Virus record (IMG/VR): IMGVR_UViG_3300045988_149282
Location: 33,636-97,635 of that record
From: a virus
Lineage: Duplodnaviria > Heunggongvirae > Uroviricota > Caudoviricetes
Length of the DNA: 64,000 nt
Strand: one strand, 5' to 3'
Shown one piece after another: positions 11,407 through 58,474 of this stretch; positions within the stretch are counted from its first letter, which is position 1; every line of letters begins with the position of its first letter. Below the pieces are notes generated by a model that did not search any database, had not been told where the DNA came from, and saw nothing but the letters and a program-made list of their open reading frames with translations. The translations under genes were made by a program, and so were the position numbers.

Positions 11407-12075
11407 ATGACCAAGATCTTTGTGGTTGGCGGCACAAAGGGCGGGCCTGGCAAATCCACCGTTGCCCAGCAAATTGCCGTTTGCCTGAAAGTCAAAAAGA
11501 AGAAGAAGGTTTATATTACCGATATAGATATTCAGCGCACGACAACGAGCTGGTGTGAAGACCGTCGACAGAACGAAGACCTTGAGCTGATTCCTTTTGC
11601 ATACGTTCAGGATGACATCATTAAGCACCTAAAATCGCTTCAGGGTAGAGCTGAGTTTGTAGTGGTAGATGCTGGTGGCTTCGACTCCGAAATTCAGCGA
11701 CAAGCGATGCTGATGGCTGACGTTATCATTATCCCGCTGCGTCCTAAGCGTCGTGATTTGAAATCTTTACGTGACATCGATCCTATTATCGACAATGTTC
11801 GCAATGTAAACGATAAAGTGAAGGTCCGCGCGGTCATGAACCAGTGCCCGGCTTTGCCATCACAAGTGTCTCGCATTCTGGCGGCTAAAGAGATTGTTGA
11901 GACGTTTGGCATCGAGTCTGCGCCAGTCAATCTATATAACCGCAACGTCTATGATGATGCGGAAGAGTCTGGTCGCTCTATCTTTGAAATGACCGGTAGC
12001 GAGCGCGACAAAAAGGCGGAAGCCGAGTTTGAAGAATTTGTAGATTATCTGTTGAGTCTGGAGGAAGAAGAATAA
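11407..12075 (+). CDS. parA: ParA/Soj-family partition ATPase (small, type Ib-like)
   Basis: 222 aa; deviant Walker A GGTKGGPGKST at N-terminus; followed by small partner gene. Confidence 0.7.
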   Translation: MTKIFVVGGTKGGPGKSTVAQQIAVCLKVKKKKKVYITDIDIQRTTTSWCEDRRQNEDLELIPFAYVQDDIIKHLKSLQGRAEFVVVDAGGFDSEIQRQAMLMADVIIIPLRPKRRDLKSLRDIDPIIDNVRNVNDKVKVRAVMNQCPALPSQVSRILAAKEIVETFGIESAPVNLYNRNVYDDAEESGRSIFEMTGSERDKKAEAEFEEFVDYLLSLEEEE

Positions 12076-12434
12076 TGTCCATGAAAATGGGTGACCTAGC
12101 AAAGCGCAAAGAGCCTGATGCACCGGCTAAGAACACAACTCCTTTGCGCCAACCAGTCAGACCACAGGGACGCCCGACTCGTGGCAAAGAGAAAATTAAA
12201 AGCCGCACAATGTCACTGGAGGACGAATACTTCGAACTGCTGGAGATGATGAAGTTCATCCCTCGCTTCGAGAAGTTCACTCGTTCTGACGTGATTCGAG
12301 CAGCCATTTTCCATCTGGCAGAGAAGTCACCGCAGGAAATCGAGGACATCGTGAAATTGAATGAGGCGATCACCGCTGCCGATGTCACGATGCGTACCGA
12401 TGAAATCAAACGAGAGTTGATGAAGAAAGGTTAA
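12075..12434 (+). CDS. small partition DNA-binding protein (ParB/ParG-like partner of ParA)
   Basis: 119 aa, basic N-terminus, start overlaps parA stop (ATGA-type coupling); assignment from operon position. Confidence 0.4.
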   Translation: MSMKMGDLAKRKEPDAPAKNTTPLRQPVRPQGRPTRGKEKIKSRTMSLEDEYFELLEMMKFIPRFEKFTRSDVIRAAIFHLAEKSPQEIEDIVKLNEAITAADVTMRTDEIKRELMKKG

Positions 12435-12486
12435 AAATCATGCATTGGCGCGTACATTGCGCCAATGCATAACTACAGTGTCAGCT

Positions 12487-40305: not shown

Positions 40306-40640
40306 TGAAGACCATCCCATTCGCGCTGTTGTTTCTTTCTTCGATCGTTGTGGCCGACACCACTGTTTATCAGTGTGAAATGTCTGTAGCCGACGTTAAG
40401 AATGGCGCTCTTACCGACGTCATAAAAGCACCATATGGAGCGATGGTCGTAGACAGCGGCGACCAGTTCTATGTTGTGCGTGACGATCGAGTGTTGTCAT
40501 CCCCATATCTCACAAATCGTAATGGCAAATTAACCGGCGTCGGAGAAGACCACTTCGTATACAACAAATACAAGGGCTTCTATGGCGTTCACGCTTCTCA
40601 GCAAAGCTACCTTTTCGATGACTGCAAGGAGGTTGGGTAA
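40305..40640 (+). CDS. secreted/periplasmic hypothetical protein
   Basis: 111 aa with N-terminal signal-peptide-like segment (MKTIPFALLFLSSIVVA). Confidence 0.4.
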   Translation: MKTIPFALLFLSSIVVADTTVYQCEMSVADVKNGALTDVIKAPYGAMVVDSGDQFYVVRDDRVLSSPYLTNRNGKLTGVGEDHFVYNKYKGFYGVHASQQSYLFDDCKEVG

Positions 40641-40852
40641 TGGCATTAACACTGGCAGGTCTGGAAATCGAGAAAACAAGCGGCTACTGGCGTGCTAAGG
40701 GTTTCAAGCAGCATGGCATTCTTGAGCGTCTGGAACGTGAAGATGGGTATATCGTCCACCAGCGGCGTGAATGGCGTATGTACGATCCAGAAACAGGAAA
40801 ACTGACTACAAAAGCCGGAACACTTTGGGGTCTGTTAAAGAAAATACACTAA
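40640..40852 (+). CDS. hypothetical small protein
   Basis: 70 aa basic ORF; followed by hairpin 40861-40884. Confidence 0.3.
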   Translation: MALTLAGLEIEKTSGYWRAKGFKQHGILERLEREDGYIVHQRREWRMYDPETGKLTTKAGTLWGLLKKIH

Positions 40853-40898
40853 ATGCAAACTGACTGCGGCACGTTCCGCAGTCATATTTCATAGTCGT

Positions 40899-41433
40899 CA
40901 CCGCTGACAGCATACACAATCAACTACCGCTGATAGCATATCGAGAGTCTATCTCACCGCTCACAGCATACTTTACTCGATTTTTTACCGCTGACAGCAT
41001 ACTTAAGAAATTGCATGAATAATGTGTCCCGGTATGGGTATAACCAGAACAAAATTACCGCTGGCAGCATACGAATGTCTGACATATACCATTAATTACC
41101 GCTGATAGCATATCCAAACAAAAATTCCTCAATAAAACACCGCTGACAGCATACGTTCTATCAGGGAGTAGCAGGCAATAAATGCCTTTCACTACAAGCA
41201 ATCAGCGCAATAGCAATAGAATGTTAGTGAGCGCAAACCTATATGGAATGCACTCTTCGAGGTTAGTAACCACTGGGGAGGTATGACAGAGCATTGAGTG
41301 GTGATAGATGATTTACCGCTCACAGCATACGTTCATCTCACTATACCGCTGGTAGCATATCTTTAACCGTTCACAGCATACTTTTCAGAAAAATAGCCGC
41401 TGATAGCATACATTTCACCGCTGACAGCATATC
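40899..41433. repeat. iteron array (12 copies of ~17-19-bp repeat ACCGCTGA[C/T]AGCATA[C/T]) downstream of repA; incA-like copy-control locus
   Basis: Copies at about 40899, 40926, 40955, 40987, 41056, 41097, 41139, 41313, 41345, 41365, 41395, 41416 with irregular spacing. Confidence 0.75.
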
Positions 41434-42526
41434 AAAGCAGTTTGAGACTATTGGAAAGGATCTCAATCATCTTGATATTTTCAGGCGTCAAATTCTGCGA
41501 AAGTTCGGTTATCTTGTTGATAATGTTCTGTTTGGCATCAATTTCCCCAGCTTTCTCATCTGGTTTTTTGGGTTCGATGTCTTCAGGTTTTGGCGGTGCG
41601 ACTTTGAGTTTTGGATTGCGGCTGTGAATCTGGATATAGATCGACCGCCCACGCTTAATCTCGCTGTATTCGAGATAGCCCAAATCTTGGAGAGCTTTTA
41701 AGCCGTTACGTATAGTCTGATTCTGCGAGCTGACATTCCTGCTACTCAAATTGAGTCGCGCACGCAATCGAGCAAGCGATACCGGCGCAGGCTTGGTAGG
41801 AAGACTTTCGATGAAGGTGTACAGAGCCTGTGCTGTTTCTTTGCGTGGTAGCTTATTGATAACCTTTAACTGCAAAAGAACCTTATGGTCAAAGCGATAT
41901 AGTTCGGCCAGCTTCGGTTCTGCATAGAACACCACCGTATCTTTCTGCTCGTTGTAGTCCACGCTATTGATGAGGTGCACCATCAGAAGCGAGATCTTGT
42001 TAGAGCCGTCGACGTTCTTTTCTTCATACGTTCTCTGGAAAGACAGAGTTGTACGCATGATCTTCAAAAGACTGTTTGTAAGCCGGTCGCGGAGTGTTTT
42101 GCGGATCTGTGACGATGGATAGCCACAAAACTTAGCAAATTTCGTGATGCTTAACTCGACACGACCGTTAGGTTCGCCGTATTCTGCCAGCGAACGCACA
42201 ACGCCCACCCACGTTTTGAAATCATGATCCATGTCGAGACGAGGACCGGTTATCTTGATATCGGAATAGCCTTCAGAACGGGCTACTTCGAGCTGGACAA
42301 GCTCCTTTGAAGCATCAATCTCATTTGGCTTGTTACGTTTACTGTATTTTGTTCCCTTAAGCGTGGGGACGAACAACCCCAGTCGCATCAACGCAATTGG
42401 TTGGACTGTATTGTTGCTATTAGGGACAAGTTCCCCTGTGTACAATTCAAGGGAACCTTCTTCAAAGTTGTCGATGTTATCTTCTACTTCTTTGTTATTT
42501 TTACCTTTTTTATTTTTTGTGGACAT
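41432..42526 (-). CDS. repA: plasmid replication initiator RepA (iteron-binding)
   Basis: Gene bracketed by iteron arrays; basic Lys-rich N-terminus; start set at ATG 42526 (MSTKNKKG) because the track extension to 42646 runs through the upstream iterons. Confidence 0.65.
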   Translation of the reverse strand: MSTKNKKGKNNKEVEDNIDNFEEGSLELYTGELVPNSNNTVQPIALMRLGLFVPTLKGTKYSKRNKPNEIDASKELVQLEVARSEGYSDIKITGPRLDMDHDFKTWVGVVRSLAEYGEPNGRVELSITKFAKFCGYPSSQIRKTLRDRLTNSLLKIMRTTLSFQRTYEEKNVDGSNKISLLMVHLINSVDYNEQKDTVVFYAEPKLAELYRFDHKVLLQLKVINKLPRKETAQALYTFIESLPTKPAPVSLARLRARLNLSSRNVSSQNQTIRNGLKALQDLGYLEYSEIKRGRSIYIQIHSRNPKLKVAPPKPEDIEPKKPDEKAGEIDAKQNIINKITELSQNLTPENIKMIEILSNSLKLL

Positions 42527-42545
42527 GTGGACACCTTTGTCATTC

Positions 42546-42651
42546 AACCGCTGACAGCATACTTGATTTGCCGCTGACAGAATACCAAAAACAGTTGGCA
42601 GCATACGGTGAACCGCTGACAGACTATCAATTACCGCTGACAGCATACATG
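42546..42651. repeat. origin iterons (5 copies) upstream of repA
   Basis: Copies at about 42546, 42570, 42594, 42611, 42631 of the same ACCGCTGACAGCATAC repeat. Confidence 0.7.
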
Positions 42652-42683
42652 AACATGGCTTCAGACCAGTCGTGGCGCGGCTT

Positions 42684-42765
42684 ACAGCGATCGGGGATCT
42701 TATTTGATCTATACAAGGATCTATCTATGGATCTCTTTATTAGGATCTATCCTGTGGATATGTGA
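42684..42765. promoter_or_regulatory. GATC (Dam-site) cluster with DnaA-box-like sequence; part of replication origin
   Basis: Six GATC within ~60 bp (cgatcg, ggatct x4, tgatct) followed by cctgtggata resembling a DnaA box (TGTGGATAA). Confidence 0.55.
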
Positions 42766-42847
42766 ATAATTAAAACAGGCATTTACTACCTTCGGCGCAC
42801 CTGGTGGGTTATCGTTGCCTCGGCTAACAATCACAGAAAAATGACAT

Positions 42848-43492
42848 ATGGATCTAAAACGCACGCGCTGGGTTCGTCGTCTTGAAGACGGCTCCTACAC
42901 TATCGAATCAAATTCCAACCTGAATAAGCAGAAGTTGCTTTGTGACATCTGCGGTATAGCGGCGAAGTGCCCGATCTACGAAACCAGAATTAAACTTGAT
43001 AAGGCTGGTGTGAATTTTCATTTAAACAGTTGCATCAGGTACGTTCCATTACTCGCATTTCGTAAACCGATCATCGGATTGGATGCTCCCTACTTCAACA
43101 CACTCCGTTCAGGTGTGACGTGGCGAGATCGTTTATCACCAGACAAGCTGATTTGCCTCGTATCCGCAGACACAGGGAAAATCATCCGTTTTGGGAAAGT
43201 AGACAAGGTTTACTCAGGCCCAGTAGACGAAATGTTGCGGAAACACAGCCGGTTTAATCATCTCTGTATGGGTGGTGAGAAAATCGAGAAGGTAGAAGAA
43301 GTGATCCGCAAATCCTACGGACACTTTCTGACCAAAGATAGCCTGCTCACCGCAATCTACATCAGACATGTAAAACGTGAGTTCGACCTCGAATACCACA
43401 GCGAAGAAGAGCTTAACCTTGTTGACCCACGTCCAAAAGCTGGCGTCATAAGCATAAACGCAGCGCGTAAAAAGCCCACTGACGCGCTGTAA
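42848..43492 (+). CDS. hypothetical protein
   Basis: 214 aa ORF next to origin; Cys pairs near N-terminus (CDICG...C); no family recognised. Confidence 0.4.
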   Translation: MDLKRTRWVRRLEDGSYTIESNSNLNKQKLLCDICGIAAKCPIYETRIKLDKAGVNFHLNSCIRYVPLLAFRKPIIGLDAPYFNTLRSGVTWRDRLSPDKLICLVSADTGKIIRFGKVDKVYSGPVDEMLRKHSRFNHLCMGGEKIEKVEEVIRKSYGHFLTKDSLLTAIYIRHVKREFDLEYHSEEELNLVDPRPKAGVISINAARKKPTDAL

Positions 43493-57880: not shown

Positions 57881-58474
57881 ATGATTGCAGCCGAAAAAAT
57901 CAAACAGCGAAAGCGCGACAACTCTCTTCGTGACCTCTGGAGAACACCTGACTGGCTGTTTTCTGCCATTCAACGTTATCTTGGAGTGACATTTGATGTT
58001 GACGTTGCCTGCAACAAGGACAATGCAAAGCTGCCTAATTTCATAGGCGTTGAGCGTGATGCTTTGAAATCTGAATGGGGACAGCCAGGTACAATTGCCT
58101 TCCTCAATCCACCCTACTCCAAAATCTACCCCTGGATTGATGCGGCTATACGTGAGCAGGCTCGCGGAGTTACAACAGTGATGCTAATTCCTCAATCCCT
58201 CGATACAAAGTGGTATGAGCGTGCAACAGAGTGTGCGAATGAGACGATTATTCTGTCTGGTGGCCGCGTAGCGTTTGTCGAGCCTGACGTAAATCTGGGT
58301 CAGGTAGAAGTAAACATCAACCCAGGTGGCAGTATGCTCGTTGTTTTTCGAGGATTCTGTCAGGACGCTGGGCACTCTATAAGCAAGATCCCTTTGGACG
58401 TCATGAAAAGTCTGGGAGGGTATGATCCTGCGAATGTGATCAGGAAAAAAAGACCATCAAAGAAGGCTGCTTAG
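57881..58474 (+). CDS. dam: phage-type DNA N6-adenine methyltransferase (Dam family)
   Basis: 197 aa; WRTPDWLF motif and catalytic NPPY tetrapeptide typical of phage Dam-family MTases. Confidence 0.7.
   Translation: MIAAEKIKQRKRDNSLRDLWRTPDWLFSAIQRYLGVTFDVDVACNKDNAKLPNFIGVERDALKSEWGQPGTIAFLNPPYSKIYPWIDAAIREQARGVTTVMLIPQSLDTKWYERATECANETIILSGGRVAFVEPDVNLGQVEVNINPGGSMLVVFRGFCQDAGHSISKIPLDVMKSLGGYDPANVIRKKRPSKKAA

Follow-up and report, generated by a model that had tools for sequence, protein, structure and literature searches.

Anatomy of a putative P1/RepFIB-family iteron replicon, and of a conserved non-iteron island within its control array, in an SSU5-like phage-plasmid

Repeats flank a replication initiator gene at 40.86 to 42.77 kb of the window (the whole stretch of viral DNA that was analyzed, 64,000 nucleotides in length), and this locus raises the question of whether its likeness to the plasmid origin of phage P1 reflects common descent and what the locus does for the element that carries it. 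An earlier note on this DNA had called it a “P1-type iteron replicon” and had proposed that a methyltransferase encoded elsewhere on the element could methylate its origin. We consider it very probable that the region is a low-copy theta replicon that maintains an SSU5-like temperate phage as a plasmid prophage and that belongs to the P1 RepA/RepFIB family of iteron replicons. The features on which the analysis draws are as follows, in window coordinates.

40861–40884, plus strand: terminator-like hairpin (9-bp stem, six G–C pairs) that ends a converging plus-strand gene block (ORF 40640–40852)
40901–41153, minus strand: distal control (incA-like) iterons, seven copies, reading TATGCTGTCAGCGG in the repA sense
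41222–41277, no strand assigned: conserved non-iteron island, TGTTAGT-N7-AACCTA-N18-AGGTTAGT-N3-CACTGGG, in the 162-bp gap between the groups of control iterons
41316–41431, minus strand: proximal control iterons, five copies, beginning directly past the repA stop codon
41432–42526, minus strand: repA, iteron-binding initiator of 364 residues, between both iteron arrays (assigned by ORF and homology)
42518–42533, minus strand: two tandem TGTCCACA octamers that overlap the repA start codon
42548–42647, minus strand: origin (incC-like) iterons, five copies, immediately upstream of repA
42651–42688, minus strand: GC-rich spacer, homologous in sequence to the spacer of P1 oriR (GCCGCGCCACGaCTGG)
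42689–42747, no strand assigned: six GATC sites, as five AGATC(C/A) heptamer repeats plus CGATCG
42753–42769, minus strand: tandem DnaA boxes, TTATTCACA (42769–42761) and ATATCCACA (42761–42753), at the outer end of the origin
57881–58474, plus strand: phage-type N6-adenine DNA methyltransferase of 197 residues with an NPPY motif, outside the replicon proper

The product of repA shares 43.5% identity with P1/P7 RepA over residues 32–309 (E 2e-64) and about 50% with IncFIB RepA, and is by this measure slightly closer to the latter. It matches Pfam Rep3_N with 37.5 bits (cut-off 22.4), and an alignment of RepA across six replicons contains 90 invariant columns. The winged-helix fold of RepA is taken from this Pfam match only, because PDB sequence searches, run both with RepA alone and with a six-sequence profile, returned no solved structure. 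The start codon was chosen from the alignment, which shows where the N-termini of RepA begin in the relatives. The true start is the ATG at 42526, which has an AAGG Shine–Dalgarno sequence 7 nt upstream; the RefSeq model of the protein, with 404 residues from an ATG at 42646 that lies within an iteron, starts 40 codons too early.

The origin iterons probably carry the repA promoter as well, in which case the binding of RepA would repress its own gene. The candidate, TTGGTA-18-AAGTAT, overlaps iterons 4 and 5; it is a weak match to the consensus, and a consensus scan called no minus-strand promoter. In P1, which has the same five-iteron layout, PrepA lies inside the iterons. The octamers that overlap the start codon are possibly weak inner DnaA boxes, each with two mismatches from TTATCCACA; the corresponding position is occupied by CTATCCACA in P1 and by GTATCCACA in the Klebsiella relative.

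Scanning the window for the iteron core CCGCTGACAGCATA with up to three mismatches gave 21 matches, compared with 4.6 ± 2.2 in shuffled sequences, none of which (0 of 100) reached 21. Seventeen of the matches are on the plus strand inside the replicon region, with 12 at 40901–41431 and five at 42548–42647, and the 12 downstream and five upstream iterons counted in the earlier note are thereby recovered. Start-to-start spacings are 26, 30, 31, 70, 41, and 41 bp for the distal control iterons, 30, 21, 30, and 21 bp for the proximal ones, and 23, 21, 21, and 21 bp at the origin. The earlier note had named absence of the repeats on resequencing as grounds for giving up its reading; the repeats are real rather than an assembly artifact, with all 12 downstream iterons present in 23 of 23 complete related loci and the region covered at ≥99% identity by more than 60 independent plasmid assemblies. 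The five upstream iterons are complete in 21 of these 23 loci, and the other two loci score four at the three-mismatch cut-off. On the far side of the control array, the hairpin at 40861–40884 marks the outer boundary of the replicon. The ORF that precedes it (40640–40852) has a homologue in SSU5 that is annotated as a “Cre-associated protein.”

Beyond the origin iterons, the GATC sites start at 42689, 42696, 42706, 42718, 42730, and 42744 and span 59 bp, in agreement with the six sites in about 60 bp reported in the earlier note, and the DnaA-box-like sequence mentioned there corresponds to the tandem boxes at 42753–42769. Nowhere else does the window hold more than three GATC per 60 bp; a cluster of six was reached in none of 300 first-order Markov shuffles, and by a Poisson estimate about 0.002 such clusters would be expected per window. 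TTATTCACA fits TTWTNCACA exactly on the repA-sense strand, and ATATCCACA, which overlaps it, departs from TTATCCACA at one position. Together with the DnaA boxes, the heptamer tract makes up an AT-rich stretch (32% GC at 42700–42789), which is presumed to be both the strand-opening region and the target of Dam and SeqA.

The origin core (DnaA boxes, GATC heptamers, and GC-rich spacer) aligns base for base among P1 oriR, two IncFIB plasmids, SSU5, and the Klebsiella relative. The aligned order is tandem DnaA boxes, GATC heptamers, the motif AGATCCCyGATCG..GCCGCGCCACG.CTGG, and five phased iterons, and the tandem boxes coincide with the DnaA-binding feature annotated in P1, where the counterparts of the GATC sites are likewise annotated, as Dam sites. 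Four of the GATC sites are invariant across the six replicons in the origin alignment, and none of the six is lost in any of the 23 related loci. The DnaA/GATC segment is also the least variable part among 20 related loci, with two variable positions out of 120. The description as a “P1-type iteron replicon” holds, given the identity between the RepA proteins and an origin core that can be aligned with the annotated P1 oriR, and, to judge from these alignments, the P1-type layout is true homology, beyond a mere resemblance of arrangement.

The replicon is of a kind that is already known, namely that of the E. coli SSU5-like phage-plasmids of the pECOH89 type, IncFIB(H89-PhagePlasmid), because the region is 99.7% identical to published IncFIB(H89-PhagePlasmid) plasmids, such as p47258-4, and was located in 119 of the 5,426 complete genomes of E. 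coli, on plasmids only (plasmid-borne in 119 of 119, chromosomal in none). The carriers are circular, non-mobilizable plasmids of about 110 kb. Typing of one such circular plasmid found the present replicon as the sole typed one, and PlasmidFinder classes it under IncFIB. The accessible literature yielded no experiments on this particular replicon and no description of the detailed origin anatomy of pECOH89-type elements. SSU5-like phage-plasmids with this replicon type (pECOH89 and relatives) bear blaCTX-M-15 in clinical E. coli, and the replicon is relevant to the typing, host range, and incompatibility of SSU5-like phage-plasmids.

P1 oriR and RepFIB provide the model for how the replicon would work. 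RepA monomers would bind the five phased origin iterons (42548–42647) while host DnaA occupies the tandem boxes at the outer edge of the origin (42753–42769), and the two proteins would jointly open the AT-rich GATC-heptamer tract between them, allowing host DnaB/DnaC and the replisome to be loaded. RepA would repress its own synthesis through a promoter inside the origin iterons. The 12 downstream iterons would titrate RepA and “handcuff” with the origin iterons, which would hold the copy number at about 1–2 per chromosome and set the incompatibility specificity. Opening would need all six GATC sites to be fully methylated, and after initiation the hemimethylated sites would be bound by SeqA, blocking immediate re-initiation; host Dam should suffice for this methylation. 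Replication from P1 oriR is known to depend on Dam methylation and to be subject to sequestration by SeqA, and for RepFIB the same is indicated by reference titles in PMC2865523, among them that of Gammie and Crosa (1991), which names roles of adenine methylation in REPI, the RepFIB replicon of pColV-K30.

The P1 model leaves unaccounted for the island that interrupts the control array. The island occurs once in the window and is common to all SSU5-like replicon types; its blocks and their spacing are identical in the SSU5/pMT1 and Klebsiella types, and no copy turned up in the P1 and IncFIB replicon regions that were compared. The three replicon types that share it have RepA proteins of only 48% identity and different iterons. 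Scanning viral contigs for the island pattern gave 65 loci, 63 of them SSU5-like. The related loci were picked by an exact match to the island, and a count of its variability among them is circular; the positions usable as evidence are the 25 unconstrained spacer positions, which show no variation in 28 E. coli-type copies, and the outer 12 positions, which do not vary among the 11 different flank variants of the E. coli type that were listed. In the gap beside the island, about 12% of positions vary.

Several candidate identities for the island were considered. A structured RNA or single-strand initiation signal was rejected, since folding both strands as DNA in three replicon types yielded z-scores of −1.6 to +0.5 against shuffles; a long stem that is possible in the Klebsiella-type island is not conserved. 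An Rfam scan of 40500–43000 at E ≤ 1 matched no known RNA in either the replicon or the island. A small ORF was likewise rejected: a 34-codon frame exists, but no Shine–Dalgarno sequence was seen for it, and its first codon reads TTG in most of the Klebsiella copies and, in one of them, TTA. A partition centromere is not supported, as the island is single-copy in the window and no sequence resembling it was found when the repeats within and near the ParA-like operon were inspected. Comparison by eye with the consensuses of Ter/Tus, IHF, lox/dif-type sites, and P1 parS gave no convincing match.

One reading of this conservation is that the downstream array, or a part of it that includes the island, is more than a copy-control sink and has an extra maintenance role, for example by acting like a centromere or by binding a regulator, which would let a protein of the phage backbone or of the host modulate replication. 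The identity of blocks and spacing despite divergent RepA proteins and iterons, the invariant spacer beside a varying gap, the restriction of the island to the SSU5-like side of the comparison with P1 and IncFIB, and the lack of linkage between the partition genes and the replicon all speak for it; the single copy, the absence of island-like sequence among the partition-operon repeats, and the purely hypothetical nature of a binder speak against it. The position of the island relative to the iterons also varies by type, and in the SSU5 type the island is inverted, which argues against a role in handcuffing that depends on geometry. On balance we regard such an extra role as unlikely. The more specific proposal is more doubtful still: the island would bind a phage-backbone or host protein and thereby let the phage program or host physiology tune the copy number or shift the origin from plasmid to lytic mode and back, and the element's own methyltransferase might likewise override SeqA sequestration on induction. 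A loose analogue exists in Vibrio cholerae, where the P1-like origin of chromosome 2 is regulated by non-iteron 39-mers and crtS. The reading that we favor for the array remains that of copy control in a P1/RepFIB-type replicon.

The other proposal of the earlier note concerned the “Dam-family adenine methyltransferase” at 57881–58474. The family assignment was borne out: the 197-residue ORF matches Pfam PF05869 “Dam” (E 2.9e-38, 131.6 bits, cut-off 28.1) and TIGR01712, phage N-6-adenine-methyltransferase (113.2 bits, cut-off 97.05), both above their cut-offs, and its translation has the (D/N)PPY catalytic motif as FLNPPYS. PF05869 was the sole Pfam family at E ≤ 0.01, with no match to PF02086 (MethyltransfD12, the host-type Dam), and by these profiles the enzyme and E. 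coli Dam are not orthologues. It is about 39% identical to methyltransferases of Stx phages. Its gene lies 15 kb from the replicon in a plus-strand block of nucleotide-metabolism and replication genes (nrdAB, thymidylate synthase, DHFR, a 3′–5′ exonuclease, and RNase HI).

The enzyme could in principle methylate the six origin GATC sites and tie origin firing to the phage program, for example if over-methylation on induction abolished SeqA sequestration and turned the origin into a run-away or lytic one, or it could permit plasmid replication in Dam-negative hosts. The six GATC sites at the origin are conserved, and in the annotations of the relatives no lytic replicon of the RepL type was noticed. 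A member of the enzyme's family, M.EcoVT2Dam, targets GATC (PMC6602927), and from such family members the same specificity is presumed for the present enzyme. Against the proposal, the enzyme is only about 39% identical to its Stx-phage homologues, the gene is distant and sits in a block of a kind typical of lytic-phase genes, and P1 pairs oriR with a methylase of its own in the same way, its dmt being C1-repressed. To our knowledge, all hosts seen (Escherichia, Shigella, Klebsiella, Salmonella, and Yersinia) are Dam-positive, and the homologous P1 and RepFIB replicons function with host Dam; P1 dmt has been linked to methylation of the pac site rather than to control of oriR. A coupling through the element's own methyltransferase is not needed in Dam-positive enterobacterial hosts, and we judge it very improbable. 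Most likely, the enzyme serves lytic-phase DNA, for example in restriction protection or other late functions, rather than the plasmid origin.

That the repeats are something other than Rep-binding iterons, such as phage attachment sites (in the GenBank entry for Klebsiella phage pJN2-26, two 20-bp copies on either side of repA are annotated as attL and attR) or assembly artifacts, can be dismissed almost entirely, as there are 17 copies rather than two, phased and placed like P1 incC and incA, on an element that is a free circular plasmid never seen in E. coli chromosomes, and the repeats recur in dozens of independent assemblies.

With the region read as a P1/RepFIB-type replicon, the picture of how such replicons function is unchanged by the present results, with the conserved non-iteron island as the one feature that falls outside it. 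The practical yield is an exact origin map, a predicted exclusion between the H89 and pKPHS1 types, and a corrected start for the RefSeq RepA.

The experimentally annotated P1 oriR comprises a DnaA site, five Dam sites, five incC iterons with PrepA, and nine incA iterons, and the order of parts is the same in both systems: tandem DnaA boxes, GATC heptamers, GC-rich spacer, five iterons, repA, and a downstream control array. P1 has five GATC sites where the present origin has six, and its origin iterons are spaced 21, 21, 21, and 22 bp as opposed to 23, 21, 21, and 21 bp. Its iterons read ATGTGTGCTGGAGGGA rather than TATGCTGTCAGCGG, so that a different incompatibility specificity is expected. 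The nine P1 control iterons are mixed in orientation (three forward and six reverse), whereas the 12 here share a single one, and the pairing geometry may therefore differ. RepA carries a C-terminal extension of about 55 residues here that P1 RepA lacks. The P1 methylase gene dmt lies under a C1 operator 3.5 kb from oriR; because P1 thus encodes a GATC methylase of its own, the methyltransferase of the present element is one more parallel to P1 and not a novelty. Directly downstream of the control array, a type Ia parA-parB-parS locus like that of P1 was not found, and small converging ORFs without a Pfam match stand there instead. Where P1 has parAB-parS, the present element has a small ParA-type partition operon 29 kb away, with the sole ParA-like gene seen (a 222-residue MinD/ParA-type ATPase, 11407–12075) and a 119-residue partner. 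The phage backbones are unrelated by annotation, with baseplate genes in P1 and lambda-like tail genes (minor tail protein L and tape measure) here.

RepFIB (P307, pColV-K30 REPI, and IncFIB(AP001918)) has the closest RepA outside the phage-plasmids, including the C-terminal extension, and the same origin core of DnaA box and GATC heptamers. Its iterons differ (ATAAGCTGTGGCAT-like in the IncFIB examples), and both IncFIB examples compared have a tyrosine recombinase gene downstream of repA that is missing here. A table in PMC12838234 lists strains that carry an IncFIB(AP001918) plasmid alongside an IncFIB(H89-PhagePlasmid) one, which indicates that the two are compatible.

Among the SSU5-like phage-plasmids, pECOH89, p09EL50, and PhiR41_1 of E. 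coli are the same type of element, with a region 99–99.8% identical and no substantive difference. The RepA of pECOH89 is identical to that of p09EL50, and the shared genes include dam, parA, parB, nrdAB, and rnhA (PMC3999498). The SSU5/pHCM2/pMT1/pLF82 (Cyrano) type has the same phage backbone, replicon family, layout, and 56-bp island, but a RepA only 48% identical and different iterons (ACCACTGTAGAGAG); its control array runs in both orientations, its island is inverted, and its origin core is duplicated, with the repA-proximal copy lacking GATC at about three heptamers. The Klebsiella pKPHS1 type (IncpKPHS1) is closer, with a RepA 85% identical, the identical iteron core TATGCTGTCAGCGG in five origin copies, the same six GATC sites, and tandem DnaA-type boxes that are each one base off (TTATCCACT). 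It has eight control iterons compared with 12 here, and it carries the same 56-bp island, which in this type lies past the array and not within it; the published description of this type (PMC6735626) counted no more than four iterons on the downstream side of repA and recognized no known domain in RepA. From the shared iteron specificity, we predict that the E. coli H89 and Klebsiella pKPHS1 types should exclude each other.

The replicon region, at 40.86–42.77 kb of the window, contains a single large ORF, repA, on the minus strand, with iteron copies on both sides. The iteron core comprises 14 nt and reads CCGCTGACAGCATA on the plus strand and TATGCTGTCAGCGG in the sense of the gene. The whole 64-kb window was scanned for this core, allowing up to three mismatches, and compared with 100 shuffles; 21 matches were obtained, against 4.6 ± 2.2 in the shuffles, none of which (0/100) reached 21. 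Seventeen of the 21 matches lie inside the region, all on one strand.

Features of the replicon region and of a separate ATPase locus (window coordinates)
40901–41153: distal control iterons, seven copies
41222–41277: conserved 56-bp non-iteron island in the 162-bp gap between the two control iteron groups, TGTTAGT-N7-AACCTA-N18-AGGTTAGT-N3-CACTGGG
41316–41431: proximal control iterons, five copies, the array ending at the repA stop codon
42548–42647: origin iterons, five copies, spaced by 23, 21, 21, and 21 bp
between the origin iterons and the GATC tract: GC-rich spacer
42689–42747: GATC tract, six sites in 59 bp, five of them within AGATC(C/A) heptamers
42753–42769: two overlapping DnaA boxes, TTATTCACA and ATATCCACA
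11407–12434: MinD/ParA-type ATPase (222 aa) and a 119-aa partner without a Pfam match, 29 kb from the replicon

Outside the GATC tract, no 60-bp stretch of the window holds more than three GATC sites, and a cluster of six was seen in 0 of 300 Markov shuffles (Poisson expectation, approximately 0.002). The stretch holding the heptamers and DnaA boxes (42700–42789) is AT-rich, with 32% GC. The earlier note had described 12 iterons downstream of repA and five upstream, six GATC sites in about 60 bp, a DnaA-box-like sequence, and a methyltransferase ORF at 57881–58474, and these observations were confirmed in all particulars (iterons counted at 40901–41431 and 42548–42647).

Translation from the ATG at 42526 gives a RepA of 364 residues; this ATG is preceded, at a distance of 7 nt, by an AAGG Shine–Dalgarno sequence, and related proteins have their N-termini near the same position. 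The RefSeq model (WP_001348683.1; 41432–42646; 404 aa) takes as its start an ATG that lies within the outermost origin iteron, and its first 40 residues (window 42527–42646) are translated iterons. Alignment and the Shine–Dalgarno sequence support ATG 42526 as the start. RepA scores above the cut-off for Pfam Rep3_N and is 43.5% identical to P1 and P7 RepA over residues 32–309 (E = 2e-64), approximately 50% identical to RepA of thousands of IncFIB plasmids, 85% identical to RepA of Klebsiella pKPHS1-type phage-plasmids, and 48% identical to RepA of the SSU5, Cyrano (pLF82), and pMT1 types. A six-way alignment contained 90 invariant columns and showed that the window RepA has a C-terminal extension of approximately 55 residues, which RepFIB and SSU5 RepA also possess but P1 RepA lacks. 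Residues ~310–364 (window 41432–41596) form a proline-/acid-rich linker followed by a short conserved C-terminal helix-like segment.

In the curated P1 record, a DnaA site of two tandem boxes is followed by five Dam sites, then by five incC iterons that contain the repA promoter, and then by repA and nine incA iterons, and the parts of the window replicon stand in identical order. Between the DnaA boxes and the first iteron, the window can be aligned with P1, SSU5, two IncFIB plasmids, and a Klebsiella relative at a mean column identity of 71%; four of the GATC tetranucleotides do not vary, nor does much of the spacer. Judged by this alignment, the origin is homologous to P1 oriR, beyond a mere similarity of layout. 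Together with the identity of RepA to its P1 and P7 counterparts, the alignment of the origin core supports the earlier reading of the region as a P1-type replicon. We compared 23 related loci, drawn from plasmids as well as viral contigs, 20 of them position by position. The 12 downstream iterons and six GATC sites are kept in all 23, and five upstream iterons are found in 21, the other two having four at the threshold used. Within the replicon, variation among the 20 loci is lowest in the DnaA/GATC segment, where two of 120 positions are variable.

Based on these comparisons, the region is very probably a functional plasmid-prophage replicon that works by a P1 oriR/RepFIB-like mechanism. RepA would bind the five phased origin iterons and DnaA the outer boxes, upon which the AT-rich heptamer tract between them would open and the host replisome would be loaded. 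The repA promoter would sit in the iterons, allowing RepA to repress its own synthesis; a candidate, TTGGTA-18-AAGTAT, matches within the origin iterons, where a consensus scan makes no call. The 12 downstream iterons would titrate RepA and pair with the origin, which would keep the copy number low and determine incompatibility specificity. Firing would need fully methylated origin GATC sites, and SeqA would sequester hemimethylated ones. Control by methylation and SeqA has reportedly been described for the P1 origin, to judge from the titles of work by Abeles and Austin in 1987 and Abeles et al. in 1993, and methylation is said to have a role in the RepFIB replicon of pColV-K30, from a title by Gammie and Crosa in 1991; all three titles appear among the references of PMC2865523.

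The 197-aa product of the methyltransferase ORF matches Pfam PF05869 and TIGR01712 (phage N-6-adenine methyltransferase) and carries an NPPY motif. It has no match to PF02086, the host Dam family, and its sequence indicates that it is not orthologous to host Dam. Beyond SSU5-like elements, its best matches are Stx-phage enzymes (~39%) and other E. coli, Klebsiella, and Salmonella phage enzymes (~30%). A member of the same family, M.EcoVT2Dam, is known to target GATC (PMC6602927), which makes GATC specificity of the 197-aa enzyme plausible, albeit unproven. The gene and the origin are 15 kb apart, and the neighboring genes (nrdAB, thymidylate synthase, DHFR, an exonuclease, and RNase HI) resemble a block for DNA metabolism in the lytic phase. 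The hosts of the element carry their own Dam, so that no methylase of its own is needed, and P1 too has a GATC methylase, dmt, with a C1 operator, 3.5 kb from oriR, so that such an enzyme does not set the element apart. These points leave the suggested coupling of the origin to the phage program, through methylation by the element's own enzyme, unsupported, unneeded, and non-distinctive, and we consider it very improbable.

Its conservation argues that the 56-bp island is functional. Both the Klebsiella and the SSU5/pMT1 types have its blocks at exactly the spacing seen here, although SSU5/pMT1 elements differ in their iterons and their RepA is only 48% identical. Searches of one P1 and two IncFIB replicon regions that tolerated 8 mismatches in 28 positions did not recover the island. 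While the zero-variation count from the related-locus comparison is circular, the 25 spacer positions left unconstrained by the search pattern showed zero variation across 28 E. coli-type copies; the outer 12 positions were also constant among the flank variants listed, and approximately 12% of positions in the remainder of the gap were variable. The island lies inside the control array in the window element but after the array in the Klebsiella type. In the SSU5 type, it follows four iterons and is inverted between oppositely oriented iterons, which suggests inversion by iteron recombination. Rfam gave no match to the island, neither strand folded better than shuffles, and as an ORF it lacks a conserved start codon. 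No second copy was found elsewhere in the window, and no similar sequence among repeats in or around the ParA-like operon. The island looks like a candidate duplex protein-binding site of the SSU5-like backbone rather than of the RepA/iteron system.

The window represents a temperate phage with lambda-like tail genes and plasmid functions. The 2.5 kb around the replicon are 99.0% identical to Escherichia phage PhiR41_1 and 99.2 to 99.8% identical to dozens of plasmids from E. coli and Shigella, among them p09EL50 of E. coli O104:H4; these plasmids are circular, mostly non-mobilizable, and approximately 110 kb long. On one near-identical plasmid with typing examined, the H89-type replicon was the sole typed replicon. 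The 1.9-kb region occurs in 119 of 5,426 complete E. coli genomes, on plasmids in every case and on the chromosome in none. One example is p47258-4, the published plasmid of strain 47258, which measures 110,844 bp and is typed as IncFIB(H89-PhagePlasmid) (PMC12838234). The type element, pECOH89 (2014), is an SSU5-related phage-like plasmid that shares an identical RepA with p09EL50 and whose genes include dam, parA, parB, nrdAB, and rnhA (PMC3999498), and a 2025 survey states that SSU5 (IncFIB) replication genes are already in plasmid-typing tools. Hence, the replicon is of a known kind, a member of the P1/RepFIB iteron family that is listed as IncFIB(H89-PhagePlasmid). No detailed anatomy of the H89-type origin was found in the accessible literature; what remains new is the small conserved island and, as a proposal, the methyltransferase coupling. 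The window also carries a cluster of four tRNA genes at 21229–21856 (Asn-GTT, Tyr-GTA, Thr-TGT, and Ser-TGA); P1 has adjacent tRNA-Asn and tRNA-Thr genes near dmt and tciA, and the annotation of a near-identical plasmid places a TciA-like tellurite/colicin-resistance gene downstream of rnhA, which hints at a module common to P1 and SSU5-like elements.

In SSU5, the origin core is present twice (L003, 1760–1990 and 2140–2400), with iterons after each copy; the outer copy has six intact GATC sites, and the repA-proximal copy has lost GATC at approximately three heptamers (AGAACCA, AGACCCA). In the 108-kb Yersinia pestis NCTC5923 contig NZ_UAVH01000011.1, an origin-adjacent 214-aa gene, homologous to window 42848–43492, occurs at two places (L086 and L087), with repA beside one only; overlapping assembly of a circular pMT1 could explain the two copies, as could a genuine duplication. 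The published description of the Klebsiella sister group lists just four iterons and reports that RepA has no known domain (PMC6735626). In Klebsiella phage pJN2-26, two repA-flanking iterons (L004 1878–1897 and 3148–3167) are labeled attL/attR in GenBank, and are almost certainly misannotated RepA-binding iterons.

The window element differs from P1 in that its 12 control iterons all share one orientation, against three forward and six reverse iterons in P1 incA, and in that its partition genes are unlinked to the replicon. The ATPase and partner at 11407–12434 are likely the partition system; a perfect 12-bp inverted repeat, ATGCATTGGCGC-N7-GCGCCAATGCAT, follows them at 12440–12470. The iteron sequence also differs from that of P1, so that a separate incompatibility specificity is expected, consistent with the finding of IncFIB(AP001918) and IncFIB(H89-PhagePlasmid) plasmids together in the same strains (PMC12838234). 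The Klebsiella pKPHS1 type has an iteron core identical to that of the window element and should therefore be incompatible with it.
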